From assembly GCA_046350055.1 (NCBI GenBank), contig JAXMBC010000001.1, forward strand, positions 1,214,660 through 1,278,659: a stretch of DNA of 64,000 bases. The letters run 5' to 3'. Shown here in pieces: positions 4,887 through 59,123 of the stretch. The translations under genes and the position numbers were made by a program. The DNA comes from Gemmatales bacterium (lineage in GTDB: Bacteria; Planctomycetota; Planctomycetia; Gemmatales; HRBIN36). Under the pieces are notes generated by a model. That model worked only from the letters and a program-made list of their open reading frames with translations, searched no databases and was not told the DNA's origin. The stretch's first letter is position 1, and the number at the start of each line of letters is the position of its first letter.

Positions 4887-4934
4887 ACCGGCCTTGCCCG
4901 TTCCCCGTCATGACGCTATGACAACATCAACCAC

Positions 4935-5006: not shown

Positions 5007-5047
5007 TTTCCTTCAGATTCCACGGTAACTGATAACAAGCCGTTTTT

Positions 5048-5085
5048 CGCAAGAAGCCCCGTTTTCACGGGGTTTCTTGCGTTTG
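5048..5085 (+). terminator. rho-independent terminator after tRNA-Gln
   Basis: A 14-bp stem CGCAAGAAGCCCCG/CGGGGTTTCTTGCG with one mismatch and loop TTTTCA, followed by TTTG. Confidence 0.6.
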
Positions 5086-5191
5086 TGACTTTGCCTGACA
5101 TCCTTCTCCCTATCCCAGCTCAATGACGGGGGCATAGGCGTTACATTTCCGTTCTGCTCACGCCTCTATGCTGTGATCCCGCACAGGAACC

Positions 5192-7645
5192 GTGAGGCAA
5201 CCCATGTCCACTGCACCAGAAATCCAGTCGTCACCGCCACCTCCTTCATTCCTCGAAAGACTCCTCTCTCCGCAGGGTATCCAGGCACTGCTGGGCACGG
5301 GTGGAGCGTTGTTCGTCGGCGGCCTCATCACCTGGCTGGCGACGCTGGGAGTATTTGATCATCCGCTGGTGCTTGCTGCCTGTCTGGGTGGGGTGAACCT
5401 GGCGTTGCTGTTTGCCGGCTTTGCCCTGGTGCTGCGGTCCCGATATCAACTCGCAGGACTGGCACTGACGCTGCTGGCGTGCCTGGTGATGCCCTTGCAT
5501 TTGTGGTTCTATCACGCCCAGCACCTGCTCACCTTTGACAACCATCTCTGGGCAGCTGCGCTGGTGATTTCGTTGCTCTATGCCCTGACGGCCCGGGTGC
5601 TGCAGAACCTCTGGTTCGTGCCTATTTTCCTGGGTGGGATCGCGATGACCACGCTGTTGATCCTCGCAGATCTGGGACAGTTCTGGCAGGTGACGGCTCC
5701 AGCCATCGCCCTGGTGGGCATGGGGCTGGTGGCGATCCACGTCGAACGGCTCTTCACGCAGGATGCCGCCAGCCCGTTCCGACGGGAACGATTCGGGCTG
5801 GCCTTCTTCTGGAGCGGACATGCCTTGCTGGGACTGGGCCTCCTGATGGTGCTGGTCGCACAACTGGCCGGCGGACCGTTGTATGCTCATTACACCAAAT
5901 CGATCTACGATCAATGGAGCTTCACACGCACGGAGCTGGTGACGACACAGTCGGGCAAAGGTCTGGCACTATTCCTGGTACTCGTGGGAGTGTATGCCCA
6001 TCTCTATTCCGATATGGTGGTTCGTCGCAAGGGGTACTGCCTGCAGATTGCAGCTCTGCTGCTGGTGTGGGTCGAGTTCATCGTCATTGATCTGCTGAAC
6101 ATCTCGTTGAGCATCGAATCGCTCCTGGGACTGCTGGCCGGTACCGGCTTGCTGATTCAACTGCTGCACCGCCTGGTGGGGCATCGGCTGCCGGGGCAGA
6201 TGCCGGTGCTGCCGTTCCTGGCAAGCCTGCTGAGCATCGGTGCCACAATCGTCGGGCTGTTCTGCTACTTCACGGAGAATGTGCATTACGTATCCAGTGA
6301 ACTATCGCTTCACACGATTCAATCCCTGCCAACATTGCTGTTATCGATGGCGGTGGCTGCTGTTGCCCTGGCTGGCGGGTCGTTCACTTCGACTGACAGG
6401 AAAGCGAAGCTGTATCACAGCGGGTTCGGGCTGGCGGTGCTGCTCGTCGGTACACTCGCGATTGGTTGCTATGCAGTGGCGAACTGGTATGTCCAGTGTG
6501 CCCTGGTTCTGGGGATGGTGTGTGTGGCTGTCGTGGTGTCCTGGCAGCTGCGACAGTTGCGGGAGATCGGTCAGTTCGCCCATCTCTTCGCTGCCTTCTG
6601 GCTGCTGGTGGGTATGCCTAAGCTGCTGGCTCTGGGCAGCAGCGACATCTGGCTCATCGTAGGTGTGCTGTCTCTGGCTCTGTTGTTCTATGCACTGTGC
6701 ACCGTGCTGCTCAAGCAGCGTGGGGCGTTCGCCCTGGCGCTGCTCAGTCTGGTGCTGATTGTGCTGCACGTGTTTGCCTGGCTGCAACTGGTGCTGGCAT
6801 ACAAGATGGCAGCGGGTGCAGTCCTGGGTGCGAGCCTGCTGGTTGCGGGCAAGGCAACTGCTCGTTCTGCGTCCCTGGCAGCCAGTGCCCGCGTATTGAC
6901 GAAGATGGGGTCGGTGATCTTCTTTGTCTCGACCCTGGCAACCATTCTGCTGGGCGTGCAGACACTCGTGGCTTACACCTCACATGCGGTCATCTGGCCG
7001 GTGTTCTTCAGTCTGCTGCTGGAAGGCATCCTGGCTGCAGTGTTCTACCTGATGAACAAGAAGGATGTGTCAGCGAACCTCTTCTTCGCTACGGCTGTAA
7101 CCAACGCCAGCCTGGCGGTCGTTCTCCTGACGACGATGCTGGAACTGCCGATGTGGCGGAAGCTGGAAGTGGCAAGCGTGGGGCTGGGTCTGTTCATGAC
7201 CGTGCTCGGCTTCCGGGCCTGGTTGCAGGAGGTGCAGGAGCGTCATCAGCAGCCTTCGGTCTCGCCCATGTTCCTGCTCGGTTCGTTGCTGGTGGGTGTG
7301 CCCATGGTCCTGGTAGTCATGGGGTACCGCAGCAGCGGGCAGTTCATGGTCCTGGACGAAGCCTCGATGTTCATCGTGGGACTGGTGATGCTGGGCCTCG
7401 GTTGCCTGTGTCAGCTCCGCATCCCCGCGATGGCGGGGGCAGCGTTGACGCTGCTGTATCTGGCAGGCCTGCTGCTGTTCGTGCCGTGGGGTCAGCTGGG
7501 AACAGCAGCCCTGGTGCTGGCTGGTGGCGGTGCCGGACTGTTCCTGATTGGCCTGGGTCTGAGCATCTTCCGCGACAGGCTGCTGGCTTTGCCACAGCAG
7601 GTGAAGCAGCGGCAGGGCATCTTTCAGGTGCTGGGCTGGAGGTAA
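5192..7645 (+). CDS. large polytopic integral membrane protein, function unknown
   Basis: The 817-aa ORF is almost entirely a series of hydrophobic helices. Codon bias is good. Confidence 0.6.
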   Translation: MRQPMSTAPEIQSSPPPPSFLERLLSPQGIQALLGTGGALFVGGLITWLATLGVFDHPLVLAACLGGVNLALLFAGFALVLRSRYQLAGLALTLLACLVMPLHLWFYHAQHLLTFDNHLWAAALVISLLYALTARVLQNLWFVPIFLGGIAMTTLLILADLGQFWQVTAPAIALVGMGLVAIHVERLFTQDAASPFRRERFGLAFFWSGHALLGLGLLMVLVAQLAGGPLYAHYTKSIYDQWSFTRTELVTTQSGKGLALFLVLVGVYAHLYSDMVVRRKGYCLQIAALLLVWVEFIVIDLLNISLSIESLLGLLAGTGLLIQLLHRLVGHRLPGQMPVLPFLASLLSIGATIVGLFCYFTENVHYVSSELSLHTIQSLPTLLLSMAVAAVALAGGSFTSTDRKAKLYHSGFGLAVLLVGTLAIGCYAVANWYVQCALVLGMVCVAVVVSWQLRQLREIGQFAHLFAAFWLLVGMPKLLALGSSDIWLIVGVLSLALLFYALCTVLLKQRGAFALALLSLVLIVLHVFAWLQLVLAYKMAAGAVLGASLLVAGKATARSASLAASARVLTKMGSVIFFVSTLATILLGVQTLVAYTSHAVIWPVFFSLLLEGILAAVFYLMNKKDVSANLFFATAVTNASLAVVLLTTMLELPMWRKLEVASVGLGLFMTVLGFRAWLQEVQERHQQPSVSPMFLLGSLLVGVPMVLVVMGYRSSGQFMVLDEASMFIVGLVMLGLGCLCQLRIPAMAGAALTLLYLAGLLLFVPWGQLGTAALVLAGGGAGLFLIGLGLSIFRDRLLALPQQVKQRQGIFQVLGWR

Positions 7646-24136: not shown

Positions 24137-24172
24137 AACGTAGGTCCGGTGCACTGGTTCGGCGTCAGCGGC

Positions 24173-24493
24173 TCACCCACCGATCAGTTGCTGCCATCCG
24201 AGCAACGCCTGACGGAACTCGTCCAGCCCGACACGGCACACCGGCATGGACTCGTCCCACAGGCACTTGATCTCGGCCCCGGCAGCCGACAGGGTAAGCA
24301 GGAACGCATTGCCGGTGCCGCTGAACCCCGACTGACAACCTGCGGCGACCGCCTCTGCCATCTCCACCAACTCGGCAGCCCCGTTCGGGCTGGATTGGAC
24401 ATCCTGTTCCAAGAACCAGCCGACGGCCTCGTGTGGCGGAGCCACCTCGCACCGCGGGTAGCCATGCGCGTCTCGCAGGAACCGGGCTTCCAC
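24173..24493 (-). CDS. cassette ORF f, hypothetical
   Basis: A 106-aa ORF with a GTG start, preceded on the minus strand by GTTCGGCGGCGGAGGGCTTGCGGCA. Confidence 0.5.
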   Translation of the reverse strand: MEARFLRDAHGYPRCEVAPPHEAVGWFLEQDVQSSPNGAAELVEMAEAVAAGCQSGFSGTGNAFLLTLSAAGAEIKCLWDESMPVCRVGLDEFRQALLGWQQLIGG

Positions 24494-24600
24494 TGCCGCA
24501 AGCCCTCCGCCGCCGAACGACCCCGCTCAGCGGCCGCGGGGGCTCGGTGAGCTGTGAGTCGCAGAAACGCTACATGCCCCCGCCGGTCTGCTGCAGCGCC

Positions 24601-24834
24601 TGGATACTAATCATAGCCCTTCGGTTACAGTGAAGTCGGCGAACTTCACTCCAGGAGAGACTACGATGCGTTACTACACCCAGACTCACCCATACTACTG
24701 TGGCGTCGACCTGCACGCAAGAAGCCCGGGTGCCATAGCCTGCGTGTACTCACGCTGGCTATGCCGAGGTACCCCAAGGTTCCGGCATAGTCAGGTCGAG
24801 TACGACCAGACTAGGGCCCCCTTGCTATAGAGGG
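24601..24834 (+). mobile_element. recombinase-less remnant of an IS110/IS1111-family element inserted in an attC-like site
   Basis: The left end has the hairpin AGTGAAGT-CGGCGA-ACTTCACT and GGAGAG upstream of the ATG at 24666. It encodes MRYYTQTHPYYCGVDLHARS, where GVDLH corresponds to the N-terminal GIDxH/K motif of DEDD (IS110) recombinases. The ORF is then fused directly to module A1. Confidence 0.5.
24725..24817 (+). repeat. structured module A, copy 1 (candidate IS1111-type right end / guide RNA)
   Basis: H1 is 24734-24763 (CATAGCC-T-GCGTG TACT CACGC-T-GGCTATG). H2 is 24759-24790 (CTATGCCG...CGGCATAG). H3 is 24794-24807 (GGTCG AGTA CGACC). Confidence 0.7.
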
Positions 24835-25262
24835 GTTCGGCGTGCCTCTGCTTCTGCAGCCCACAGGGACCAATACCGCTCGGCCGCCGCCTCCAACTCC
24901 GCCTGCGACAGCGGCTGGCCCTCGGCGGTGGCTGCGTGTGTTGACGAGTACCGCGTCAGCAGGTAGCCGCCGCCCCCACGGTCCGAGCACTCGACGCGGA
25001 TGGCCCCCTCGGCCACCTCCGCCGACAGCACCTCCAGGCCGATCGCGGCGATGGCGACCGGGTCGGACACCGGCGGCCCCTCGTAGGGGTGGTACTCGAA
25101 CCGCTCGCACCCGGTGAGCGTGACCAGCACATGCTCGGCGCGGGTGGGCAGGTGGCCGCACAGGTACGAGATGCCGACTGACAGCCGGAGGTCGCCGGGG
25201 ACTGAGCCCTCGGCTGCCGACACCTCGCCGTCGTGCAGCACGTTCCAGATGGCGACATCCAC
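24825..25262 (-). CDS. cassette ORF e, hypothetical
   Basis: A 145-aa ORF with a GTG start and GGAGGG 9 nt upstream. The GCCGAAC box overlaps its last codons (CGC CGA ACC CCT CTA TAG). Confidence 0.5.
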   Translation of the reverse strand: MDVAIWNVLHDGEVSAAEGSVPGDLRLSVGISYLCGHLPTRAEHVLVTLTGCERFEYHPYEGPPVSDPVAIAAIGLEVLSAEVAEGAIRVECSDRGGGGYLLTRYSSTHAATAEGQPLSQAELEAAAERYWSLWAAEAEARRTPL

Positions 25263-25286
25263 CCGTTGCGCCCTCCGCCGCCGAAC

Positions 25287-25442
25287 AGATGCTTCTCTGA
25301 CCTATAGGTCAGAGAGTAAACTACACAGGTCAGATAATACCGGCTTGTCTCCAGCCTGGTCAAGCGATTACATCGAAACGTCGGCTTTCCTGATCTCCCA
25401 CTTTCTCCAAGCCGTCCACTAGCCACCACCCTGGTGTACAAG
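25287..25442 (-). promoter_or_regulatory. element B, copy 1 (short form): outward promoter plus palindromic operator/hairpin facing ORF e
   Basis: On the minus strand, TTGACC (25363-25358) is followed by an 18-nt spacer and TATTAT (25339-25334). A CTGACC half-site and the perfect 22-bp palindrome TCTCTGACCTATAGGTCAGAGA (25294-25315) follow. Confidence 0.55.
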
Positions 25443-25534
25443 CCTATCATAACAGGGAGGCAGGCCTGCGAAGGTCGTGGAGACGGTCTGTCTATAGAGT
25501 GCAGTAACCGTGGCACGATGAACTCCGCCGCGCG

Positions 25535-25630
25535 CCCGGGTGCCATAGCCTGCGTGTACTCACGCTGGCTATGCCGAGGTACTCCGAGGTTCGGGCATAG
25601 TCAGGTCGAGTACGACCAGAGGCCGTCCGG
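25535..25630 (+). repeat. structured module A, copy 2
   Basis: It is near-identical to copy 1, with H1 at 25544-25573. The H2 3' arm reads GGTTCGGGC. It is preceded by segment C, which ends in ATGAACTCCGCCGCGC. Confidence 0.7.
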
Positions 25631-25788
25631 TAATTGAGTTGATCTAAACTGCCTGATCTCTTGAGGTTACGTTGTTGTTTGCCAACGCCAACGCAACACA
25701 TCAGGAGATCAGGCATTGCTTAGTGCCAAGGACGGCACGTCGCTCGCCACGTTGATACAGCAAGCCATTCCTGTTTGTCAGGAAGCGG

Positions 25789-25890
25789 CGGGTGCCATAG
25801 CCTGCGTGTACTCACGCTGGCTATGCCGAGGTACTCCAAGCTTCCGGCACAGTCAGGTCGAGTACGACCAGGCTTTGGCACCCGTGCGAG
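25789..25890 (+). repeat. structured module A, copy 3, with a perfect closing stem
   Basis: The closing stem is CGGGTGCC (25789-25796) paired with GGCACCCG (25877-25884). H1 is at 25796-25825. The module ends at the stop codon of ORF d. Confidence 0.7.
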
Positions 25891-25894
25891 CCAG

Positions 25895-26413
25895 CTACCA
25901 AGTCCGATGATAGCGGAACCCATCGTGATCCGTGCCCTCGATGTATCCCATCGCTGACAATGTCTGTTCAGCCGCCCGCCGCCGCGTGAACCCGAGCAAG
26001 TCCTCGCGGCCGGCGTTCGTGAGTTCCGCGGCGACCCGCTCAAAGGTGCACCGCGGGTCGTGACCGAGCAACTCGGCCGAGCGCCACGGGAGCGGCATGA
26101 CCAAAAGCTTCTCCCGGTCGTCGTCGGGGTCCGCCAGACCCAGAGCGAGGAGGGCCAACTCGAGCGTCTCTAGGGACGCCCGGCGCACCGCCAGTGCAGC
26201 GGATCGCTCCGCGTAGCACAGCAGGACGGATGCTAGCCCGCCGTCCATGCAGCCGAGAAATTCGGCGGCAGACGGGCCAGCGTCACGGGCAGTCCGCAGG
26301 AGTGCCTCGACGGACTCATCAAGCGGATGAGGTATAGGCCGCGGGCCGTAGCCATCGTACACGCCGTCTCAGATTGCGGCGTCAACCCGGTCAGCAATGT
26401 CGTCGAGACCCAT
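25895..26413 (-). pseudogene. cassette ORF d with an in-frame TGA after codon 14
   Basis: On the minus strand, GAGGAGG lies upstream (7-nt spacer) of the ATG at 26413. This encodes MGLDDIADRVDAAI, then TGA (26371-26369), and the same frame continues DGVYDGYGPRPIP... to 25895. The track lists only 25895..26362. Confidence 0.45.
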
Positions 26414-26427
26414 CGCCCTGCCTCCTC

Positions 26428-26523
26428 GCCGAACGACCCCGCTCAGCAGCGGCGGGGCACCGGCGAGCTTGGACTCCCAGAACAGCGTCATGCCCCGCCG
26501 TCTGCTGCAGTGCCTCGTTCGGC
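26428..26523. other. intact attC-like site (96 bp)
   Basis: It runs from GCCGAAC (26428-26434) to GTTCGGC (26517-26523). The arms CAGCAGCGGCGGGGC and GCCCCGCCG-T-CTGCTG pair, leaving one unpaired T. Confidence 0.6.
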
Positions 26524-26529
26524 GTGCCT

Positions 26530-26931
26530 TTAGCTCATCTGGAGCCGGAACCCAATGCCCTCTGACGCTGCAACCCCAAGGACCCGCGCCATCTCCTCCA
26601 ACTCCTCGACCACTCCGGCGGACTCGTCGAGCCGCTTCGCCGCCTTCGGGCTGGCCTTGATGTGGTCGGCGAGGGCTTGCATCGCGGCCCGGCCCTCGGC
26701 CGGATCGAACCACTCAGTCCACTCGCCCATGACCTCCGCAAGGTCGTCCGGATCGCCGTCGAAATCCTCGGGGATCGGGCGGTTGTCCGCGAACGCCGTG
26801 AACGGCGTGAGCTTGGCCGCCCGTGCGATCTTGTCGAGTACCTCGAAGTTCGCCGCCAAGACCTCGCCGAGGGCGACGAACTTGGTGCCCGTCAGCTTGG
26901 GCTGGAACACTGGGTAGATGCCCAAGCTCAT
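26530..26931 (-). CDS. cassette ORF c, hypothetical (acidic; immunity-protein-like flavour)
   Basis: A 133-aa ORF with the ATG preceded by GGCGGAGGGCAAGCGG. It reads MSLGIYPVFQPKL...PEDFDGDPDDLAEVMGEWTEWFDPAEG. Confidence 0.55.
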   Translation of the reverse strand: MSLGIYPVFQPKLTGTKFVALGEVLAANFEVLDKIARAAKLTPFTAFADNRPIPEDFDGDPDDLAEVMGEWTEWFDPAEGRAAMQALADHIKASPKAAKRLDESAGVVEELEEMARVLGVAASEGIGFRLQMS

Positions 26932-26954
26932 CCGCTTGCCCTCCGCCGCCGAAC

Positions 26955-27173
26955 AGTTGTTTCTCTGACCTATAGGTCAGAGAGTAAACTACACAGGTCA
27001 GATAATACCGGCTCGACTCCAGCCTGGTCAAGCGATTAGCCTCGGATGGTCCAATTCCCTGACCTAAACTCTGATGAAGCTCCTCGACTACTGACAAACT
27101 CTGTCTCGACCTTTCAGTTTACTATCTGCAACTTTCTCCAAACCGTTCACTAGCCACCACTCTGGTGTACAAG
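26955..27173 (-). promoter_or_regulatory. element B, copy 2 (long form): outward promoter plus palindrome facing ORF c
   Basis: On the minus strand, TTGACC (27031-27026) is followed by an 18-nt spacer and TATTAT (27007-27002). The palindrome is at 26962-26983. Confidence 0.55.
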
Positions 27174-27174
27174 T

Positions 27175-27290
27175 CCGGGTGCCATAGCCTGTGTGTACTC
27201 ACCCTGGCTATGCCGAGATACTCCAAGGTTCCGGCATAGTCAGGTCAAGTACGATCAGACTAGGGCACCCGGGCACCCGTGCAGCGACTG
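27175..27290 (+). repeat. structured module A, copy 4, with a closing stem and full 3' tail
   Basis: The closing stem is CCGGGTGCC (27175-27183) paired with GGCACCCGG (27264-27272). The tail GCACCCGTGCAGCGACTG abuts GTTCGGC (27291-27297). Confidence 0.7.
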
Positions 27291-27304
27291 GTTCGGCGGC
27301 GCCC

Positions 27305-27772
27305 TCACTCTTTAATACCCCAGCCCGCTAGTCGTTCCTTATGAGCGGCCGTGACTGCATTTTCATACGCAGCAGGGTCATTGAGCAATGTGGGCAGAAT
27401 GATTTTCTCGATGTCATCGACGACCGCATCAACGATGTCGCGCCCATCCGTCGTTTCGACGGCCCACTGCTTTTCGTTAAACCGGACTGCGCTTTCGCTA
27501 GCCCGGCCAAGCCGTTTGATCAAGTCGTCGTGACCACAAAGGAACTTCCCGTAATCATAGTTCGGTAATCCTAACTCGTCGTACCGAACAATCAGTCCGA
27601 TCTTTACCGGAGGCCTAATGTAAAATCCGTTTGAAAAAGGGCCGCCAGAACTGACAGCATTGTGTTCGGCCTCAAAGACGAATCCGTGCGGATTCAGGAT
27701 CGGATCGAGCCGGGCGACAATTGCGAGCAGGCGATCGTGCGGTTGTCCCAGGTATTTTGAGGACTTACTCAT
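27305..27772 (-). CDS. cassette ORF b, hypothetical
   Basis: A 155-aa ORF from the ATG at 27772 (MSKSSKYLGQPHD...). The track start at 27799 lies inside the attC-like site. Confidence 0.55.
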   Translation of the reverse strand: MSKSSKYLGQPHDRLLAIVARLDPILNPHGFVFEAEHNAVSSGGPFSNGFYIRPPVKIGLIVRYDELGLPNYDYGKFLCGHDDLIKRLGRASESAVRFNEKQWAVETTDGRDIVDAVVDDIEKIILPTLLNDPAAYENAVTAAHKERLAGWGIKE

Positions 27773-27787
27773 GTCAGTCACCAAGCC

Positions 27788-27882
27788 GCCGAACGACACC
27801 GTTCACCTGCGAGGCGGCCGGTGAGACGTTGAACCCTGAAAAACCGTGATGCCGCCGCGTCAGGTGCAACGGCTGGTTCGCT
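27788..27882. other. intact attC-like site (95 bp)
   Basis: It runs from GCCGAAC (27788-27794) to GTTCGCT (27876-27882). The arms CACCTGCGAGGCGGC and GCCGCCGCG-T-CAGGTG covary relative to the site at 26428-26523. Confidence 0.6.
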
Positions 27883-27890
27883 GCGGCCCC

Positions 27891-34460: not shown

Positions 34461-34487
34461 CGGAGAGCTGCTGTCGTGCTTGACTGG

Positions 34488-36302
34488 TTACTTCGAGTAG
34501 CCAGCCTGCTGAACCATGCCCGCCTTCATCATCGAGCTGATCACATCGTTGGCAGCTTCCTTCACGCGGGGATCCATATCCACCGAAGCGTGGGCCAGCA
34601 TGTTCAGCACTTCAGGACGGGTAGACTTCATCGAAGCCAGCGTGCGGATGGCGGCAACCTTCACCAGTGGTGCACGGTCATTCTGTGCCGCAGTCAGCAG
34701 CGCGTCTTCCACGTAGGGACGAACCGTTGGCAGCGTGGCCTGTTCCAGCCGCTGGGCAGCCCACTGGCGGTTTTCCCATTCCTTGGACTGGGCCAGCACA
34801 TTGATCAGCTGCATGGTGTTGGCCACAGCGTCGCCATTACCAGGATTCATCTGGTGAATGCCAGCCATGATTCGATCGTTCATGCCGTCGCCGAAGGGCT
34901 GATTCAGGCAGTAGTAAGGAACCACGTTGGGGGAGTTCATGTAGCACCGGATAGAACTGCTGTTCATGGTGCAGAACGCGGGAACCATGGGTTGAGGAGG
35001 TGGGCCACCGGGTGTGCCATTGACTGCTGTCAGGTGCACGCCGGGAACTGGCACATTGATTTCGTCCTCGCGAACGCGATGACCACGATGGCTGCGGCCA
35101 TGCCCCACTCCATGCTTGCTGCAGGCGTCGCAGCTGCCTTCAGGGCCGCCACATGTGGCACACTTCGAAGCAGCACACTGGCTATCGCAGGCCTTGGCAG
35201 TAGCACAGGGATCGCAAGCCTTGGTGGCAGTAGCACAGGGATCGCAAGCCTTGGTGGTAGTGGCACAGGGATCGCATGCCTTGGTGGCACACGGGTCACA
35301 CGCCTTGACTGGTGCAGCAACTGTCTTGTAGGGGTCACACACCTTGGCCGGTGCAGCAACCGTCTTGCAAGGATCGCAGGCCACCTTGGCTGGCTCGCAG
35401 GGCTTGCATTCAGTCTTGGCTACAACTGGCGGGCAAGCAGGCTTGCAAGGCTCACATTTCACCGGAGCAGGTGCACAGGCAACTGGTGCACAGGCAGTCT
35501 TAGGTGCACAGGCAGTACCACAGCTATCGCAGTTCAAGGTCACTACTTCGTTGTTATCCAGTGCCTGGCAGCGATGGGTCATCACGCCGTGAGCATCACG
35601 AGCAGTGCCCAGAATCTTGTACTTGCGGGCCTTGCCGTTTTCCGTGATGGTGATCACTTCGCAGCCACCTACCAGTTCACGTGTGGTAGCAGCAGCGGGG
35701 GCAGGAGCCGTTTGCACAGGTGCAGCCTGGACAGAGACAGGAACCTGTGTCGGAACCACTGGCACCGAAACCGTATTCTTGATCGTCGCTGGTGCAGCCA
35801 CTTCCTTGCGGACGGGTGCAACTTCAGACTTGATTGGCTGCGAAGCCACAGGAGCGCTGACAACAGGCTTGGCTACTTCGTTCCTGGGAAGCAGCGGAAT
35901 CAAGCCGCCGTCCACAGACTGTACCTTGTCGCCATCCACAGGCACCTGATGACCGACTTGCTTGACTGCAGCATCAGCTGCAGGAGCCACCGGGCAACCC
36001 GTCGGGCGAACGCCGTTGACCCAGCGATAGAGCTTGATGCGCTCAGCAGCGCTCTTGGCCTTGGTGTTTTCCACCAGGGTCAGTTCCGTCTTGCTGGTGT
36101 TGGTTGTGGCTTGCATCACGGGCGTGCCGTCAGCGAGACGCCATACCTGGGTAATGACAGCCTTCTCCGTGGGGAAGTTCTTTTCCACCACTGTGATAGT
36201 TTTGCCCAGGCGCTGGTCCAGGGCGGGGAATGCATCATCAGCCTGGGCTGCACTGGTGCAGGCCAGCAGACAGACGAGCAACGCGGGGGCAACACGACAC
36301 AT
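34488..36302 (-). CDS. secreted protein with a Cys-rich tandem-repeat region and C-terminal HEAT repeats
   Basis: It has a signal peptide (MCRVAPALLVCLLACTSAAQA) and KACDPCAT repeats. The C-terminus has HEAT-like helices (VKVAAIRTLASM...DPRVKEAAND). Confidence 0.7.
   Translation of the reverse strand: MCRVAPALLVCLLACTSAAQADDAFPALDQRLGKTITVVEKNFPTEKAVITQVWRLADGTPVMQATTNTSKTELTLVENTKAKSAAERIKLYRWVNGVRPTGCPVAPAADAAVKQVGHQVPVDGDKVQSVDGGLIPLLPRNEVAKPVVSAPVASQPIKSEVAPVRKEVAAPATIKNTVSVPVVPTQVPVSVQAAPVQTAPAPAAATTRELVGGCEVITITENGKARKYKILGTARDAHGVMTHRCQALDNNEVVTLNCDSCGTACAPKTACAPVACAPAPVKCEPCKPACPPVVAKTECKPCEPAKVACDPCKTVAAPAKVCDPYKTVAAPVKACDPCATKACDPCATTTKACDPCATATKACDPCATAKACDSQCAASKCATCGGPEGSCDACSKHGVGHGRSHRGHRVREDEINVPVPGVHLTAVNGTPGGPPPQPMVPAFCTMNSSSIRCYMNSPNVVPYYCLNQPFGDGMNDRIMAGIHQMNPGNGDAVANTMQLINVLAQSKEWENRQWAAQRLEQATLPTVRPYVEDALLTAAQNDRAPLVKVAAIRTLASMKSTRPEVLNMLAHASVDMDPRVKEAANDVISSMMKAGMVQQAGYSK
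35191..35380 (-). repeat. in-frame tandem DNA repeats (27/30-nt units, then ~39-nt units)
   Basis: gccttgg(tgg)cagtagcacagggatcgcaa occurs 3.5 times and ggtgcagcaacYgtcttg occurs twice. Together they encode the (K)ACDPCAT(T)TK and CDPYKTVAAP motifs. Confidence 0.8.
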
Positions 36303-36541
36303 GGCCTGGCTCTCCTTGCTTATTCTGAGCGCGCAGTCTCTGCGGGGAGACCTCTCAGTGAACCTGTGCGGGTTTGCTCACCGAGACGATGCGCGCGGCT
36401 TCTAACAGTGTTGCCCTGTGTATCGTCTTGGAAAGTTTAACCGCATGAGGGGAAGGGAACGAAGATGCGGAGGATGCACAGGGTAGGGGGCTTCAATGTG
36501 CACAACTTAACTCTGATACCGATTAGGTAAGATGGGTAACC

Positions 36542-40001: not shown

Positions 40002-40092
40002 GTCTCTGTATTGTGCTTAACAAAGCATGCGACTCGGGTGCCACGGTTTTCGTGTACGCACGATAACCGTGCCAATTCACCGCTAACAACGA

Positions 40093-40656
40093 TTACGGAT
40101 GTACTTTGTAACTCTGCCAGCGCGCCGATGTCCCCAGCGTACCGCTCCATTGTTCAACATAGCCACGATCAAGCATGCTGCCGCGCTGCAGGATTAGCCC
40201 TCGAATATCTTCCGCATCCTTGGCGCGTTCCGAGAAGAGCTTCAGCAAGATGATATCTTCCGCACTGGCAACACGAATGCTGAGGCCATTCAGTTGAATA
40301 TACCTGGCTCGCTGCATGATCGATTCAGCCCAGTCACCATCGACTGCGATCATGTCAATAGTGACAAGTCGTTGTTCTACCTTGATATGTGAGCGGAGGA
40401 TGTACATGTGCGGAAATGGCAATTGCTCGGGTTCAAACACAAAGAATGCCCTGCCATCCTTGACCAGTGCTTCCTGCAGAACGGTCCGATCCATGGCGAC
40501 AATGAAATCGACATCCGAGGTGCTGCGCGGCTGACCATAGACTGCCAGCGCCATCCCACCGATTAGAGCGAAAGGCACTTGATGACTTGAGAGAAAACTA
40601 CTTGCTACTTTGAGCGATTCGATCAAATCCGAATGCTTCAGGTTTGAGGAGTCCAT
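40093..40656 (-). CDS. nucleotidyltransferase-fold protein (MNT/DUF6036-like)
   Basis: It has IGGMALAVYGQPRSTSDVDFIV, which fits the GG...G..R.T.D.D NTase signature. Confidence 0.55.
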   Translation of the reverse strand: MDSSNLKHSDLIESLKVASSFLSSHQVPFALIGGMALAVYGQPRSTSDVDFIVAMDRTVLQEALVKDGRAFFVFEPEQLPFPHMYILRSHIKVEQRLVTIDMIAVDGDWAESIMQRARYIQLNGLSIRVASAEDIILLKLFSERAKDAEDIRGLILQRGSMLDRGYVEQWSGTLGTSARWQSYKVHP

Positions 40657-45434: not shown

Positions 45435-45451
45435 CCGAAGAGGGTCACCCT

Positions 45452-45473
45452 CTCCCCCTGTACTCAGGGGGAG
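45452..45473. repeat. GC hairpin with a TACT loop (terminator/REP-like)
   Basis: CTCCCCCTG-TACT-CAGGGGGAG, flanked by the direct repeats AGGGTCACCCT and AGGGGGTCACTCT. It lies between the GNAT stop and the next gene start. Confidence 0.6.
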
Positions 45474-45491
45474 GCGGAGGGGGTCACTCTT

Positions 45492-49006: not shown

Positions 49007-50377
49007 ATGCACCGCTGGCAAGGATGCCTGTTACTCCTCATCGCTGGGCCGTTATGGGCTCAGGAATGGCGTCCTGTCTCGCAAATACCGGCGGAGCCGA
49101 CTGCCCCTGTCATCAAACTGGGCAAGCCACGGCTGACTCGCAGCGAAACTCCCGAACTGGTAGCCCAGCCACTGCCTCGGGAATCCATCAAGTATCAATC
49201 CACTCGGTACAACGATCTGGCCAGCGTGCCCGAACCAGTCTTTGGCGGCCAGCCACTCAACCTGCTGCAAACCCGCTACCAGGGGCCGGGCAGTGCTGCC
49301 GAAGAAGCATTCAACTGCGGCCAGGTTCCCGGCTCAGGCGGCGGAGCAGCACCCCCTGCTGGAGCACCTGCTCCATACTACGGTCAGACTGCTCCTCCCC
49401 CCGGTGCTGCTCCGGGTGCCCCTGCACCGTACTACGGCCAGCCAGGGGCTCCTCCACCGGGCGCCCCGGCTTCCAGCACTACACCCTGGTATCAGCCCGT
49501 CAAAGACTGCTGGAACCGCATCTTCGGTGGCGGCAGTTCCAATAACGGCATACCTGGCACCTGGGATGCCCGCAGCGATCAGGGCTTCAAGGACTTCATT
49601 TCGCCCGTCAGCAACCCGACCTACTTCGAAGACCCCCGTTCGCTCACCGAGTTCCGCTTCATTGGCACCTACCAGAAATCGCCTGACGACAACATCCTGA
49701 TGGATGGCGGTCAGATCCTCGACTTCAACTTCCAGGGACGCATCAGCATCAATGACAACTGGTCGCTGACGTTGCAGCGGCTGGGCTTCTCCAACGTCAA
49801 ACCCGGCAGTGCTGCTCTCGGTGGCTACTCCGGCGGCACCGGGTTTAACGATCTGCAAATGGGCGTCAAGTACACCTTCCTGCGTGATACCCGCAGCGAA
49901 AGCCTGCTCGCTGCGGGCGTGAGCTTTGAGCTGCCCATCGGCAGCAGCAATGTCCTCTCGGGCAGTGGCACCGGCATCACCCCCTACCTGAGCTACGGCC
50001 AGGGCTTCATGGATAACTGGCACCTGCTTGCTGCAGGCGGTTACCGCTTCGGCATCTCCAGCGGCAGCAGCGACTTCCTCTTCCTCAGTGGCCACCTCGA
50101 TTATGGCTTCTTCAAGCGGTTCTATCCGCTCGTCGAAATGAACTGGTACTACTACACCGGCAACGGCGACCGCCAGCCAGTCGACTTTGAAGGTGGCGAT
50201 CTCAAGAATATCGGCGCCAGTGGCGTGGCAGGCAGAAGCCTCGTCACACTGGCCGGTGGCTTCCGCTTCAAGTTCAGCGAATCGCTCCAGGCCGGTATCA
50301 TCTACGAGATGCCTGTCGTCGGCACCGATATGCTGGAAAAGTACCGGGTGATGTTGGATTTCATCATTCGGTTCTAA
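49007..50377 (+). CDS. putative outer-membrane beta-barrel protein with a Pro/Gly/Ala-rich linker
   Basis: It has a signal peptide (MHRWQGCLLLLIAGPLWAQ) and an alternating-pattern C-terminal half ending ...LDFIIRF. Confidence 0.45.
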   Translation: MHRWQGCLLLLIAGPLWAQEWRPVSQIPAEPTAPVIKLGKPRLTRSETPELVAQPLPRESIKYQSTRYNDLASVPEPVFGGQPLNLLQTRYQGPGSAAEEAFNCGQVPGSGGGAAPPAGAPAPYYGQTAPPPGAAPGAPAPYYGQPGAPPPGAPASSTTPWYQPVKDCWNRIFGGGSSNNGIPGTWDARSDQGFKDFISPVSNPTYFEDPRSLTEFRFIGTYQKSPDDNILMDGGQILDFNFQGRISINDNWSLTLQRLGFSNVKPGSAALGGYSGGTGFNDLQMGVKYTFLRDTRSESLLAAGVSFELPIGSSNVLSGSGTGITPYLSYGQGFMDNWHLLAAGGYRFGISSGSSDFLFLSGHLDYGFFKRFYPLVEMNWYYYTGNGDRQPVDFEGGDLKNIGASGVAGRSLVTLAGGFRFKFSESLQAGIIYEMPVVGTDMLEKYRVMLDFIIRF

Positions 50378-50447
50378 GGTTGTAACGTCATTATTTAGAG
50401 CCTCACCAACGATTTGATGAGGCCATCACATTTAAAGTTTAGAGCGT

Positions 50448-50636
50448 TTATTTAGATTGCTGGCTAGATTCTTGCTGAGTAACCTTCAATTGCGAACTAA
50501 CTACTGGAGTTCGTGCAACGTTTACAGTGGGCTTTGCTGAGTTTTCCAATAGGTTCTGCTTCCACTCAGGCCAAGTTTGCACGACTCTCTGTGCAATCTC
50601 CTGTTGTCTCTTAAATTCGTCCCTGCTCATCATCAT
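50448..50636 (-). CDS. small hypothetical protein (62 aa), translationally coupled to the deaminase gene
   Basis: The sequence ATGATGATGA overlaps the deaminase stop codon. The gene lies in the AT-rich islet. Confidence 0.4.
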   Translation of the reverse strand: MMMSRDEFKRQQEIAQRVVQTWPEWKQNLLENSAKPTVNVARTPVVSSQLKVTQQESSQQSK

Positions 50637-51542
50637 GCCTCCTGTACTCCAAGCATTTCGGATTGGAGCTTACCAAAGAGTCTACAAGCATTTGCCTCAT
50701 CTTCCAGATATGAGGTGGGCTTCATTTGTATCCTCAGTCGTGATTTCTCGATAGTCCAATCAACTTTAGTGCCATCTGAGTTCTTCCTAACAATATCGTA
50801 ACTCGCTCCAAGGTTCATTGAGAATAAGTCGAAGAACCTTCGAGGACCAATTCCAACAAATGCGTCGAATTTAACCCTTGACGATTCTTCCGCTAATCCA
50901 GGTGGGCAGATTGCGTCTTCATGGAAGTCAAGGGCTTTGCTTTTTGGATATGGCTCGACATAAACAACCCGCTTAACCCCTGCTGCAATAATATGCTTAG
51001 CACAGTTGTGGCATGGAAAGGTCGTGCAGTACAATGTTGTACCTATGGTTGACAAACCGTTTCGTGAACAACAAAGAAGTGCCTCCATCTCGGCATGGAC
51101 TACTCTGCCGTACTCAGTCAAGTCACGAAGAGGACTTTCATCCAGCAAGCTCCTCACTTTTGCTTCATCTGCAGCAGGAATCGCAATCTTCAATCTTTCT
51201 ACGATGCGATCGATAATCTCAAGCTGTTCAGCTCTATTTGAATCACCGGCCTTTCGCATATAGTCTCTTCCATTCGGCGTGTCACATATTCTTCTAGTAG
51301 TCAGATCTCTATTGGGCCAATAAAGGCCACCCTGAGCCTTTGGGCAGTCATTTGCACCTGTTGACAATATCTGAGAATCTATTGTAACTACTGCTCCTAC
51401 CTGCCTCGACATATCAGCTGATCTTAACGCAGAAGCAAATGCCATAAACATTGCATGTTCATCGAAGGTTGGCGTGACATAAGGATCACCAAACCATAGC
51501 GATACTATTCTTGTAATATCATGTCTAAGTTGATCGCGATTA

Positions 51543-52389
51543 GGCCGTGTTGACATTGATCTAGCATAAGTTGGGGCAGAGCGGTAAACCAGTGAAGTCC
51601 AAGGAAGGATTTTCTGGAGAAAGATCATGCGACGATTCGAGCTCACGGATGAGCAGTGGGAGAAGATCAAGCACCTGCTGCCAGGCAAAGAAGGCGATTC
51701 AGGACGTACGGCCAAGGACAATCGACTCTTTATTGATGCTGTGTTGTGGACGGCCCGCACCGGTGCTCAGTGGCGTGATTTGCCTGCTCGCTTTGGTAAC
51801 TGGAACAGCATCTATCAGCGGTTCAATCGCTGGGCCAAGGCGGGGCGTTGGCAGGAAATCTTTGAGCGAATGCAAGATCCTGATCTGGAATGGCTGCTGA
51901 TCGATTCGACGATTGTCAGGGCCCACCAGCATGCAGCAGGAGCCCTGAAAAAAGGGGAGACCAAGCGTTGGGACGATCTCGGGGAGGACTGGGAACCAAG
52001 GTCCACATTGCCTGCGAAGGGCTTGGGTTGCCAGTTCGCTTCCTGCTAACTGGTGGCGAAGTGCATGATGTCACGCAGGCGTCAGCCTTGATCGATGGAA
52101 TCTCCGCGGAACAAGTCATCGCCGACAAGGGCTACGATAGCGATGCAGTCGTTGAGAAGATTGAGGAGCAAGGCGGTACGGCCATTATTCCTTCCAAGAG
52201 CAACCGCAAAATGCCTCGTCCCCATGACCGCGCGACCTATCAGGAACGGAATCGGATTGAGCGTTTGATCAATCGTCTGAAACAATGTCGCCGGATCGCG
52301 ACTCGCTACGACAAAACCAGTCGCAACTTCCTGGCATTCCTCTACTTAGCGGGCACCATGCTCTGGCTGGCGTAATTGTCAACACGGCC
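51543..52389 (+). mobile_element. IS5-family (IS427-like) insertion sequence, 847 bp
   Basis: The 13-bp terminal inverted repeats are perfect: GGCCGTGTTGACA (51543-51555) and TGTCAACACGGCC (52377-52389). They are flanked by a TA direct duplication (51541-51542 and 52390-52391). Confidence 0.85.
51627..52375 (+). CDS. IS5-family DDE transposase, made from two frames joined by a -1 frameshift at an A6G run
   Basis: OrfA reads MRRFELTDEQWEKIKHLLPG...IVRAHQHAAGALKK. The slippery run GAAAAAAG is at 51947-51954. The downstream frame reads GDQALGRSRGGLGTKVHIA...DKGYDSD...RNRIERLINRLKQCRRIATRYDK. Confidence 0.8.
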
Positions 52390-53064
52390 TAGATGATATC
52401 CTGACAAAAAAGTCTGCTAAATGAAATGTTTTGTTCACACGTTGGCCATGAACGACATTTGTTTCATCGCTATCACGAGCAATCAGGCTTCTTGCTTGAT
52501 CTTCGCTCATTCCTCGATCAGTCTGAAGGTGAACGAGCCGCCGAGACTCATCCGCATGAACCCCAATCAATACGAACCCATGTGGATAAATCCGGCGTAA
52601 TTGCGCAACCTCTTCTGGCCGTTTCAGCGAATTAATAATGTAGGCTGTTTTTGGGGATGGTTTGGATTGGTCATTCTCCTTGTCTCGCTTTGCAAAAATC
52701 ATCGATGCAGCACCTAGTGCTAATATTTCACATTTGCCACTTGCCTCCCTTGCACGATTACCCGCATCCATGAGGTTACTAATGCGCATAAACTGACATG
52801 AACCATGGTCAGGTACAGTACACAAAGTCGGAATAACCTCTTCGGATACTTTCATTGAAATGACATTGTAGCCCGCTAGGTTCAATCGCTCCTTCAGCAA
52901 TTCAGTAATCAAAGTAGTTTCAGTACCAACTGCACTAACCAAGCCAATAACAAGTTCGGAATCGAAATCTGTCGTCATGTTATCAATCCTTTTAGTGAAC
53001 ATTCCATAGTATATTTGCAAAAATGAAGTAATGCAAAAAAACATATGCATATTAACGGTTACTT

Positions 53065-56370
<3,306 letters not shown>

Positions 56371-56546
56371 CGTGTCTCAAGTCCTGGGTGCTGAGTCCTG
56401 AGTGCTAATCTGCAGTCCGTACGGGGAGGTGGGACTATGGCATGATTTACGGAATGATGGCGCATTATGTAGGGTACGCGGGGCATACCTCACAGAAGTG
56501 GTCTGGATGCAACCGGCCACTCACGTCAGCGCACGGAATGCGGTGG

Positions 56547-56775
56547 CACGGAAACGCGGTATGTCCGCTTTTCCGTGTGAGAGTTGCTGTTGTGGTACGT
56601 CCAGGCACGGAGGAGACGGAGTACAGTCACCTCCATGGCACCCCAGCTCCCCGGGCACCCCGGCTGCAACATCCGAGGGTAAGCGGGTGCCATGCTCACG
56701 GCACGATGCCGTGAGCATGAGGAGGGGGAAGAGACTTCGCGAACGGAGCCGTGGCACGGTACTTGGTACTCCAAG
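56547..56775. repeat. cluster of module-A-like hairpins in the carB/OLD intergenic region
   Basis: X1 is CACGGAAA-C-GCGG TATGT CCGC-T-TTTCCGTG (56547-56577). X2 is CGGGTGC|CATGCTCACGGCA CGA TGCCGTGAGCATG|AGGAGG (56684-56725). A third hairpin is CTTGG TACT CCAAG (56762-56775). GGCACCCC/GGGCACCCCGG occurs at 56637-56662. Confidence 0.6.
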
Positions 56776-56981
56776 TGCAGTGAAGCCACGCGAAGGTATC
56801 ACGTGATCTCAGCACTGCTTGTTGAGTACACAAAACAGTGCCACAGCATACAATCGAATTTCAAAGCAGTGCCACCAAGCCTGAGCATGCCGTGTGATTT
56901 GACGTGGCAAGCTATGATGAACCTTGGTAACTTCTTCTACATCTTTCATTAATAAGGCGATTCGCAGGGCTAGGACAAACA

Positions 56982-58769
56982 ATGAACACATTACACCGAT
57001 TTACTCGTATCGATTTCGAACGATTCAAGGCTTTCGAGAAATTCAGTATACACCTGCGTCATTTCAACATACTTGTGGGCCCAAATAACGCTGGGAAGTC
57101 TACCATCTTAACAGCCTTCCGTATCTTGGCGGCGGCAATGAGAAAGGCAGTTGTCCGAAGGCCTGAAGTAGTCATGGGCCCAAAGGGTGAAACATTAGGT
57201 TATCACGTTGACATAGGTGCCATATCCGTAAGTGAGGAGAACATCTTTTTTAATTATGATGACACTGAACCGGCATCCGTCAGATTTTCACTATCGAATG
57301 GCAGAAGGCTGGTACTCTATTTTCCAGCAGAAACAAGAAGATGTAATTTAATATGCGAAAGTAGTGATCGTTGTGACAATCCTACGGCCTTTAAGAAACA
57401 GTATAGTTGTTCAATTGGCTTTGTGCCTGTTTTGGGGCCCGTCGAACATTTCGAACCACTCTACGAGAAGGAAGCAGCACGTCAGGCACTATTCAACTAC
57501 CATGCAGCAAGGAACTTCAGAAATATCTGGTATCATTATCCGGAGCAATTTTCAATTTTCCGTGAAACACTTAATCGAACTTGGCCAGGCATGGATGTTA
57601 AGCCACCTGAGATTGAGCGTTCGTTAGCGAGGCCTCGGCTCGTTATGTTTTGCCCAGAGCAGAGAATCCCTCGCGAAATCTGCTGGTCTGGGTTTGGGTT
57701 TCAAGTTTGGTGTCAAATGTTGACTCATATTATTCAATCTAAAGAAGCGTCATTGTTTCTAATTGATGAGCCTGACATCTATTTGCATGCAGAACTACAA
57801 CGTCAACTACTTGTATTACTTCGCAATCTCGGCCCTGATATCCTTATCGCTACTCATTCTACAGAAATCATTACCGAGTCCGAGCCAGATGATATTGTGC
57901 TTATTAATAAGGAACGCAAAAGCGCACGGCGGCTTAAGAACCCTGCAGAATTATTCGAGGTATTTCATCTATTGGGATCGAATCTGAATCCAATACTAAC
58001 GCAACTTGCCAGAACTCGTAAGGCTGTATTTGTGGAGGGAAAAGACTTCCAGATACTTGGGCGATTTGCGCAAAAGCTGAAGAAATCAAAAACCAGTGTA
58101 CGTGGAGGATTTGCAGTGATCCCAGTAGAAGGATTTAACCCACAAAAGATCAAGAGCTTAAAACACGGGATGGAGACGACTTTAGGTGGCAAGATTCTTG
58201 GAGCAGCAATACTTGATAAAGACTATCGATCCAATGAAGAATGCAGTTCTATTGAAAAAGAAACTGCGTTGTTTTGCGATATCGTATCGATCCATAAACG
58301 CAAAGAGATTGAGAACTTTTTGCTAGTTCCTAGCGCCATTGATCGAGCTGCACAGCGTCGTGTCTCAGATCAAGCAGCCCGATCAGGTAAGAAGGTGGAA
58401 TATAATGCATGTGCGCAGAAAGTACTAGAACAGTTTGCTGCTGAAAAAAAAGAGGCTGTAATTGCCCAGTATCTTTCAGGTAGACGAGCATTCGAAAGAG
58501 CGCGAAGCACAGGCTCTCACGATGCAACTTTGAGTGAATCTGTATTGAAGGAGTGTGGACGTGCATGGCAATCTTTCGATTCTCAAATGCTTCTTGTACC
58601 TGGAAAAGAGGCTTTGAGCGCAGTCAACCAGCAATTACAGAAAGATTATGGAGTAAGCATCACGCCCACAGCTATTATCGAAGCAATGCGTGTTGATGAA
58701 GTACCTTCCGAAATGACAGTGCTTATCGAGACGATCGAGCAATTTGCAAATCGAAGTATTACTAACTAA
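56982..58769 (+). CDS. OLD-family ABC-ATPase / Toprim nuclease-like protein (class-1 OLD or fused PARIS-like architecture)
   Basis: It has Walker A GPNNAGKST, Walker B LIDEPDIYLH and an H-loop IATHS. The C-terminal half carries Toprim-like VFVEGKDF (Glu) and ILDKDY (DxD). The gene is AT-rich. Confidence 0.65.
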   Translation: MNTLHRFTRIDFERFKAFEKFSIHLRHFNILVGPNNAGKSTILTAFRILAAAMRKAVVRRPEVVMGPKGETLGYHVDIGAISVSEENIFFNYDDTEPASVRFSLSNGRRLVLYFPAETRRCNLICESSDRCDNPTAFKKQYSCSIGFVPVLGPVEHFEPLYEKEAARQALFNYHAARNFRNIWYHYPEQFSIFRETLNRTWPGMDVKPPEIERSLARPRLVMFCPEQRIPREICWSGFGFQVWCQMLTHIIQSKEASLFLIDEPDIYLHAELQRQLLVLLRNLGPDILIATHSTEIITESEPDDIVLINKERKSARRLKNPAELFEVFHLLGSNLNPILTQLARTRKAVFVEGKDFQILGRFAQKLKKSKTSVRGGFAVIPVEGFNPQKIKSLKHGMETTLGGKILGAAILDKDYRSNEECSSIEKETALFCDIVSIHKRKEIENFLLVPSAIDRAAQRRVSDQAARSGKKVEYNACAQKVLEQFAAEKKEAVIAQYLSGRRAFERARSTGSHDATLSESVLKECGRAWQSFDSQMLLVPGKEALSAVNQQLQKDYGVSITPTAIIEAMRVDEVPSEMTVLIETIEQFANRSITN

Positions 58770-58916
58770 GAGCAAGCTAGTTGCCCCGAACACTCCCCGC
58801 TTCCCACGCTGTAACAGGATTGTCCAGTACTCCGGATGACCCTGCAAGACCACCGCTTCATTCTACCACTCGGGAACCCGGCCAGGTGCCCGGTAGGATC
58901 ATGAGGTTGCTGTGCC

Positions 58917-58946
58917 ACGGAGGTGAGGTACTCCTCTCCTCCGTGC
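58917..58946. repeat. module-A-type hairpin X3
   Basis: CACGGAGG-T-GAGG TACT CCTC-T-CCTCCGTG, preceded by CTGTGC. It has the same architecture as H1 of module A but entirely different stem sequence. Confidence 0.6.
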
Positions 58947-59123
58947 TGGCACTGCGACTCACCCCATAGAACGATCAAGGCTTGTCGTTGACACAGTCCC
59001 TGCAACACCAGATGCGACACTCCCTTTCGCCAACTCCCTGCCAGCCCTGCACTTACGACATTCACCGCGCGACATCCATGCGACACTCACCCAGGGGAAA
59101 CGGCCATTCCCTGGAGTACCCGC

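Follow-up and report, generated by a model that had tools for sequence, protein, structure and literature searches.

Hairpins around an OLD-like gene of a Gemmatales bacterium very probably belong to a planctomycete-lineage REP/RAYT system with a GTGC tag

Studies of the Escherichia coli transposase TnpA-REP have shown that both the 5′ tag and the mid-stem mismatch of repetitive extragenic palindromic (REP) hairpins are required for binding, and have led to the proposal that the last two bases of the tag select the dinucleotide to be cut by this enzyme, which cuts and transfers single strands (PMC3479197). REP families, as far as they are described in the text of PMC3733652, carry 5′ tags that occur in variants and include sub-families with alternative complementary stem residues; long stems of 12-13 bp interrupted by mismatches are known, and REPs have been reported in Planctomycetes. 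Here we analyze a 64-kb stretch of DNA from a Gemmatales bacterium (the window; contig JAXMBC010000001.1, positions 1,214,660 to 1,278,659), in which hairpins of one layout lie on both sides of an OLD-like gene, within the interval 56371-58946, and also occur in a repeated module (module A) of a cassette array and next to moaA. The combined evidence makes it very probable that these hairpins are REP elements, or inverted doublets of them (REPINs), of a planctomycete-lineage system with a GTGC tag, in which the repeats are paired with a REP-associated tyrosine transposase (RAYT). With this assignment, one mechanism covers module A, the cluster in the carB-OLD intergenic region and the hairpin after moaA.

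Analysis of the hairpins in the window revealed a shared layout consisting of a 5′ tag, (G)GGTGC (GTGG in one of the significant copies), 13-nt arms that start with CAYRG, one internal 1x1 mismatch and, mostly, a TACT loop. The foot CAYRG...CYRTG is conserved and the mismatch, mostly T:T, lies at arm position 8 or 9, with the perfect stem at 56691 as the exception among the window copies. GGGTGC stands 5′ of the foot in most window copies, with GTGC invariant or nearly so (alignment A1), and GTGG is confined to 56543-56546 and two weak remnants. A scan of the window for hairpins with at least 10 pairs and at most one mismatch gave about 16 distinct strong hairpins, seven of them of one type. 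When the strict layout was required (outer stem of 6-9 bp, 1x1 mismatch, inner stem of 4-6 bp, loop of 3-6 nt), eight hairpins were found, compared to a mean of 0.05 (0-1 each) in 20 dinucleotide shuffles, which rules out a chance origin; six of the eight have CA at their start, with GTGC or GTGG in front of it. Folded as single-stranded DNA (ssDNA), the hairpins reach −12 to −17 kcal/mol (z −3.7 to −5.1). A relaxed scan of both strands further identified H3 of module A as a minus-strand occurrence of this motif, its tag lying outside.

These results refine a preliminary description of this stretch, which had listed three hairpins around the OLD-like gene as having the layout of H1 of module A with unrelated stem sequence. 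All three hairpins are present and non-random, two of them at the positions listed, and the third at 58916-58945, 1 nt below the position first listed (58917-58946). The arms measure exactly 13 nt throughout. The stems do differ, but they are not entirely unrelated, given the conserved foot and an outer stem that is common to the minus-strand copy at 56606 and the copy at 58916.

Beyond the window, metagenome contigs were scanned with the pattern GGGTGCCAYRG-N8-TACT-N8-CYRTG, in which only tag, foot and loop are fixed, so that the presence of the tag in the metagenome copies follows by construction. The pattern matched 89 sites on 71 contigs, and in about 85 of these sites the unconstrained N8 segments pair with each other; a single break interrupts the arms at position 8 in 47 sites and at position 9 in 16. 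For the 68 copies with a single mismatch, the mismatch fell at position 8 in the form of T:T in 39 cases and of C:C or A:C in eight, and at position 9 in the form of G:A in 16. The dinucleotide CT was present at the 3′ flank in 25 of these 68 copies. Inner stems vary freely within an outer-stem type, as illustrated by CATGGTT, which occurs with seven different inner stems, and among 45 distinct copies nine of the 13 pairs change on both sides. The resulting covariation score of 0.626 compares to 0.195 for shuffled alignments (none of 500 reached 0.626) and to 0.05-0.14 when the partners were slid. Thus, the kinship with H1 of module A claimed earlier is borne out: the hairpins form one family with conserved geometry and covarying stems.

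A covariance model (model R1) found 131 copies in 249 kb of metagenome loci and recovered three copies in the interval 56371-58946 that were outside its seed (30.1, 22.6 and 16.1 bits). When applied to the carB loci of 80 other genomes (1.38 Mb), the same model gave no match at E < 0.6, and a hairpin scan of the carB loci from 80 genomes (~1.4 Mb) found no such hairpins. The matches in metagenome loci and the lack of matches in other carB loci indicate that the family is restricted to a lineage, in which it is abundant. No viral contig matched the hairpin pattern. CarB of the window is 65-71% identical to CarB of Gemmataceae and other Planctomycetota. One CarB from a metagenome-assembled genome labelled Bacteroidales reaches 92%, on a contig that is probably mis-binned; in this relative (L008), an efflux-type gene lies upstream of carB and hairpins are absent. 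None of the relatives from the CarB scan was syntenic with the window, and a scan of the genome collection with a lineage-specific 576-aa neighbor found no relative.

The family is linked to RAYT genes in related contigs. In contig L147, plus and minus hairpin copies 618 nt apart enclose an open reading frame (ORF; 4781-5365, 194 aa) whose product scored 94.6 bits on the NCBIfam model NF047646, "REP-associated tyrosine transposase" (cut-off 80); the homologues of L094 and L105 scored 91.7 and 82.4 bits on this model. The sole PDB match of the L147 protein was 4ER8, the E. coli TnpA-REP (E 0.0013), aligned over the HUH and Tyr regions. Pfam gave no match to this transposase at E 0.01, and the RAYTs match the IS200 model weakly. 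Homologues adjoin hairpins in L094, L105, L113 and L142. A protein search with the RAYT returned 2372 relatives, some of them named as REP-associated tyrosine transposase, or as transposase of Rubinisphaera, Planctomycetaceae or Phycisphaerae. In a reciprocal test, three homologues obtained from the protein search alone (P0005, P0007 and P0009) all had matches to the covariance model beside the gene, in the arrangement plus...minus in L163 and L162; L159 shows only the downstream copy, on a contig that ends 62 nt upstream of the RAYT gene. In all, inverted family hairpins flank the RAYT in L147, L094, L163 and L162, and partly in L159. L163 holds two further intergenic doublets, and all of its copies lie between called genes. 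The HUH motif PEHxH and the motif YxHxNP are invariant in nine of nine RAYT sequences. The preliminary description had argued for a functional structure, either RNA or ssDNA; the occurrence of the same hairpins around RAYT genes makes ssDNA the best reading of that claim, and the hairpins are probably ssDNA substrates.

The arrangement of neighboring copies follows a simple rule. Plus-then-minus order with the tags outward was seen in 45 of the 48 neighboring pairs within 300 nt, with gaps mostly of 2-16 nt, and inverted doublets, mostly tight and with no cargo, account for about two-thirds of the 131 metagenome copies. In the window, the rule is followed by the four module A copies (gap of 10 in A1) and by the pair 56539+/56600− (gap of 16).

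We propose, by analogy with E. coli TnpA-REP, that the ssDNA hairpin with its mismatch and tag would be bound by an HUH/Tyr nuclease, the RAYT, encoded once elsewhere in the genome. The RAYT would cut and rejoin nearby DNA, and the repeats would thereby spread or be maintained; for a tag ending in GC, the pairing rule of E. coli would predict cutting at G|C. Foot, mismatch, loop and tag would remain constant because they are presumably read by the RAYT, whereas the rest of the stem could drift freely provided that pairing is kept, giving rise to the covariation and, since the drifting positions stay paired, to the impression of the same geometry with different stems. Two units placed in inverted orientation with tags outward would form the usual doublet (REPIN). 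Binding and cleavage of these hairpins by a RAYT, and the existence of a RAYT gene in the genome studied here, are what we infer from this analogy and from the related contigs.

Several observations weigh against the assignment to a REP/RAYT system. The window contains no RAYT gene detectable by tblastn, and the copy count covers these 64 kb. The tag is GTGC in most copies and not the canonical GT[AG]G. In addition, the outer stems are unusually diverse for one 64-kb stretch (CATAGCC, CCTAGTC, CACGGTT, CACGGAAA, CAYGGAGG and CATGCTC), whereas a single metagenome contig mostly keeps to one outer stem.

The covariance model identified 13 significant copies in the window, at three loci, and all 13 are extragenic, lying between ORFs. 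Four of them surround the OLD-like gene. The first (56539-56583, plus strand; hairpin 56547-56577) has the tag GGTGG and the structure CACGGAAA-C-GCGG TATGT CCGC-T-TTTCCGTG; it is the lowest-scoring of the three non-seed copies (E 0.09 in the window, 0.004 in the interval) and folds as ssDNA at −13.9 kcal/mol (z −4.9). This copy is the left half of an inverted doublet, the right half of which lies 16 nt away on the minus strand (56600-56645; hairpin 56606-56637; tag GGGGTGC; CATGGAGG-T-GAC(tGTACTc)GTC-T-CCTCCGTG) and is the highest-scoring non-seed copy (30.1 bits, E 8e-5), although its inner stem is degenerate (ssDNA fold z −1.4). Its outer stem, CAYGGAGG/CCTCCGTG, is the one common to the copy at 58916, and the two pair as an inverted repeat (I3 and I8; 58912-58946 on the right). 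A second, duplicated tag, CCGGGGTGCCC, lies beside the right half on the minus strand without a hairpin (56649-56662; tag-only model match of 5.6 bits), the duplication, GGCACCCCAGCT / GGCACCCCGGCT, having a 17-nt period (D12; 56637-56665). The sequence GGCACCCC...GGGCACCCC, noted earlier as an echo of module A, is indeed related to the family but turned out to be the reverse-complemented and duplicated tag of this minus-strand hairpin, which had been overlooked.

The third copy (56683-56725, plus strand; hairpin 56691-56719; 22.6 bits, E 0.0035) combines the tag CGGGTGC with a perfect 13-bp stem, CATGCTCACGGCA, and the loop CGA, and folds at −16.8 kcal/mol (z −5.0). The fourth lies downstream of the OLD-like gene as a singlet (58908-58951, plus strand; hairpin 58916-58945), with the tag CTGTGC, the structure CACGGAGG-T-GAGG TACT CCTC-T-CCTCCGTG and the 3′ flank CTGG; its score of 41.8 bits is that of a member of the model seed, and its ssDNA fold reaches −15 kcal/mol (z −5.1). 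Two further sites are possible decayed REPs. At 56750-56785 on the plus strand, the tag GTGG precedes CAC-G-GTACTTGG TACT CCAAGTGC-A-GTG, with 12-nt arms (−8.3 kcal/mol, z −3.6). This hairpin contains CTTGG-TACT-CCAAG (56762-56775), another of the proposed echoes of module A, and its match to the model is not significant (7.5 bits, E 0.3). The candidate at 56807-56848 on the minus strand, with the tag GTGG and the loop TACT, is not significant either (7.0 bits, E 0.4; fold z −0.4), and its tag-proximal arm is duplicated at 56862-56875 (D6).

Outside this interval, a singlet with a score of 52.2 bits (40034-40077, plus strand; hairpin 40042-40071; CACGGTT-T-TCGTG TACG CACGA-T-AACCGTG) sits between the stop of moaA and the stop of a convergent DUF6036/AbiEii-like gene. 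Its tag, CGGGTGC, is identical to the module A flank, and a near-identical counterpart with the same 3′ flank occurs in a metagenome locus (L135). The convergent gene, encoding a DUF6036/AbiEii-like nucleotidyltransferase (40093-40656), adjoins this REP. The remaining copies belong to the four occurrences of module A. A1 (24726-24823; H1 on the plus and H3 on the minus strand, tags outward, 10-nt gap; D1) scored 58.9 and 49.2 bits; A2 (25536-25620) scored 58.9 bits, with a partial minus half that lacks the tag end (18.9 bits); A3 (25788-25885) scored 58.0 and 53.9 bits; and A4 (27175-27279), in which the tag GGGCACCC is duplicated, scored 55.5 and 44.5 bits.

Related fragments were also observed. 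The hairpin at 45448-45477, CCCTCTCCCCCTG TACT CAGGGGGAGGCGG, has 13-nt arms and a TACT loop, no tag, and a partial model match (E 0.11). At 56384-56403, 14 nt upstream of the carB start, CTGGGTGC followed by 6 nt and CTGAGT corresponds to the family tag and 3′ flank without the intervening hairpin. Tandem duplications of the tag-proximal end were found in three minus-oriented REPs (27263-27279, 56637-56665 and 56831-56875), namely GGGCACCC twice, GGCACCCCAGCT / GGCACCCCGGCT with the 17-nt period, and CAAARCAGTGCCAC twice with a 31-nt period. Such duplications may have been left behind by cleavage and rejoining, or by slippage. Tandem repeats of 30 nt and 39 nt at 35195-35370 (D5 and D11), within the long ORF 34476-36440, have no relation to the hairpins.

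The gene between the REP copies (56982-58769, plus strand; 595 aa) encodes an OLD/GajA/AriA-type ABC ATPase (Pfam AAA_21 and AAA_15) and is not part of the repeat family. PADLOC models for AriAB (74.7 bits), NsnB (75) and Old (71.7), and several GajA models, matched its product; OLD-family nucleases combine an ABC ATPase at the N-terminus with a C-terminal Toprim domain, and in this protein the former is clear; the AriAB and GajA alignments reach residue ~550, but Pfam gave no Toprim match. The preliminary description had suggested that this gene arrived in a mobile unit of which the hairpins are the ends or the recombination sites, a view under which the copies at 56600-56645 (minus) and 58908-58951 (plus) would be the borders. 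Consistent with such a unit, these two copies share tag and outer stem and are inverted around the gene, which has a GC content of ~43% in a genome of 55-60%. Short-read Logan contigs from five sequencing runs also start or stop within or just past the hairpins (56696, 58895-58940, 59001 and 59122): contigs with the OLD-like gene end at 58924, and 56696 is the start of one, contigs with the next gene start at 58895-59122, and only part of the runs or samples that carry the next gene yielded the OLD-like gene. However, contig breaks are expected at any repeat, and those seen here could be repeat-induced or reflect presence/absence polymorphism. Moreover, the tags of the two copies point inward, opposite to every RAYT-flanking pair seen, and another three copies or remnants are found in the space separating the left copy from the gene. 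The low-GC stretch (~56800 to ~58790) stops 75-120 nt short of the significant copies. No direct repeat or target duplication marking a junction was found around the gene, and look-ups with the exact proteins turned up nothing but short Logan contigs, which share this arrangement; an empty site was not among them. Finally, the metagenome doublets are mostly cargo-free, and a copy also lies beside the core gene moaA. The anatomy therefore does not favor the hairpins as island ends, which we consider quite unlikely; the intergenic regions on either side of the OLD-family gene simply happen to carry REPs. No REP copy is present in a second low-GC block (50000-53000, 48-49% GC), which has a gene for a cytidine-deaminase-domain protein at 50633-51760, indicating that low GC and REPs do not always go together.

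A function mainly in RNA, in which the hairpins would stabilize 3′ ends or attenuate the flanking transcripts and their spread would be secondary, could draw on the stability of the stems and on their placement after genes, 146 nt past the OLD stop for the hairpin at 58916 and 40 nt past the moaA stop for that at 40042. Roles in mRNA stabilization and transcription termination are among those proposed for REPs in PMC3733652. In contrast, no T run follows any copy (3′ flanks CTGGCA, TGAGAG, AGGAGG and CCAATT), which also rules out intrinsic terminators, and copies occur in both orientations and also upstream of genes, for example before carB. Rfam found only a tRNA in the window and nothing in the interval 56371-58946, and a role in DNA is indicated by the strand specificity of the tag and by the association of the family with a DNA nuclease. 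A primary role in RNA is thus very improbable, and such a role may instead be an effect added to that of the REP/RAYT system.

The position of module A in a cassette array leads one to ask whether the hairpins are short attC-type sites of an integron-like system. Known attC sites consist of RYYYAAC...GTTRRRY inverse core/core sites around an imperfect palindrome of 57-141 nt. Like them, the hairpins keep structure over sequence. The array, however, has its own attC-like sites, with the core CGCCGAAC at 24511, 25279, 26427, 26947 and 27787 and the core GTTCGGCG at 24157, 24835, 26517 and 27291. The two cores gave 12 exact matches in the window compared to 2.7 expected, three of them isolated and outside the array (24157-27794), and neither core occurs between 56371 and 59123. 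Intact attC-like sites measure ~97 nt (26427-26524 and 27787-27887), compared to only 30 nt for the hairpins. Two further sites are split (24511 to 24835 and 26947 to 27291) by inserts of ~220-250 nt that hold module A near the GTTCGGCG core, the second insert also containing the repeats D2/D4/D3; module A thus lies inside split copies of the array's own sites. No integrase was found beside the array, where the flanking genes encode a PALP enzyme, a PEP-CTERM protein and BipA, and it is RAYT genes and not integrases that the family flanks. Core sequences and length rule out attC identity, and we regard an attC-type origin of the hairpins as extremely improbable. The relation to the recombination sites of the array that had been suggested earlier for the copies around the OLD-like gene is not supported.

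Twice in the window, REP doublets sit inside split attC-like sites, adjacent to the R′ core, and in L103, L133 and L153 single cores occupy a similar place beside REPs. Among contigs from other metagenomes, L103 (1-1160; WBZV01027578.1) carries two module A copies (86-88% identity) and repeat D2 (85%) around a 184-aa ORF, and L155 has an attC-like half-site match directly beside a REP doublet (5417-5577). In a test of this association, five of 143 copies had a core within 45 nt of the tag, suggesting that any link between REPs and attC cores is local at most. One could imagine that the same-type inverted REPs mark a RAYT-dependent or REP-templated single-strand capture of the OLD-family defense gene, that the doublets nested by R′ cores reflect a working link between RAYT and cassette array, and that REPs serve as gene-capture sites in this lineage; we consider this quite unlikely. 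At module A1, the tag is abutted by a short ORF start, MRYYTQTHPYYCGVDLHARS (24667-24726), which presumably resembles the N-terminus of an IS110-family transposase. The IS110 family is known to target REPs.

Recognition of the hairpins as REPs guards against misreading such repeats as island borders or as new recombination sites. It also documents, in planctomycete-type contigs from soil and freshwater, a REP/RAYT family whose tag (GTGC) is non-canonical and whose 1x1 mismatch is fixed, providing natural variation with which the reading of tag, mismatch and loop by RAYTs can be tested. The covariance model can be used to flag the repeats, at which short-read assemblies also seem to be interrupted.

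Comparison with related mobile and recombining systems showed both likeness and difference. The hairpins resemble single-strand substrates of other enzyme families in part. Integron attC sites are likewise folded single strands that are read by shape and unpaired bases and vary in sequence among sites, but they differ from the hairpins in core sequences, length and enzyme, a tyrosine recombinase in the case of attC. The subterminal imperfect palindromes of IS200/IS605 elements are also ssDNA hairpins with a 5′ guide tetranucleotide, read by a Y1 HUH transposase; their hairpins have the same orientation, whereas those around the OLD-like gene are inverted (minus then plus), and neither tnpA nor tnpB is present in the interval 56371-58946.

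The closest likeness is to REP systems. As in the E. coli REPs, their bacterial interspersed mosaic elements (BIMEs) and TnpA-REP (4ER8), a 5′ tetranucleotide tag stands at the foot of the hairpin, the stem is imperfect, with the mid-stem mismatch needed for binding in E. coli, the copies are extragenic and form inverted pairs, and a transposase gene, here in related contigs, lies between inverted copies and encodes an enzyme with HUH and Tyr motifs. In contrast to E. coli, the tag is GTGC (sometimes GTGG) instead of GTAG, a single 1x1 mismatch (mostly T:T) takes the place of a 2x2 bulge, the arms are fixed at 13 nt with a TACT loop, and the host is a planctomycete; the similarity of the RAYT to 4ER8 is weak (E 0.0013). 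As in the Pseudomonas REPINs, in the part of that work considered here (Bertels and Rainey 2011), two inverted REPs with a short spacer are the common unit, as seen in the 45 of 48 pairs of this family. Compared with that account, the halves of a doublet may here differ in stem (CATAGCC.. in H1 and CCTAGTC.. in H3 of module A), such that a doublet need not fold as one long hairpin, and the stem types are more diverse per genome stretch. Lastly, the tagged families of Di Nocera et al. (2013), of which 24 are GTAG families, include, by their text description, long-stem GTAG-24 REPs with 12-13 bp stems broken by mismatches, sub-families with alternative complementary stem residues, and occurrences in Planctomycetes. 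Their tags vary as well, with the variants GYAG, GYRG, GTRG, GTMG and GTGG in that description; GTGC is not among these, and GTGG, the tag of the copy at 56539 and of the two weak remnants, is found in GTAG-20 of Opitutus terrae, a member of the Planctomycetes-Verrucomicrobia-Chlamydiae (PVC) superphylum.

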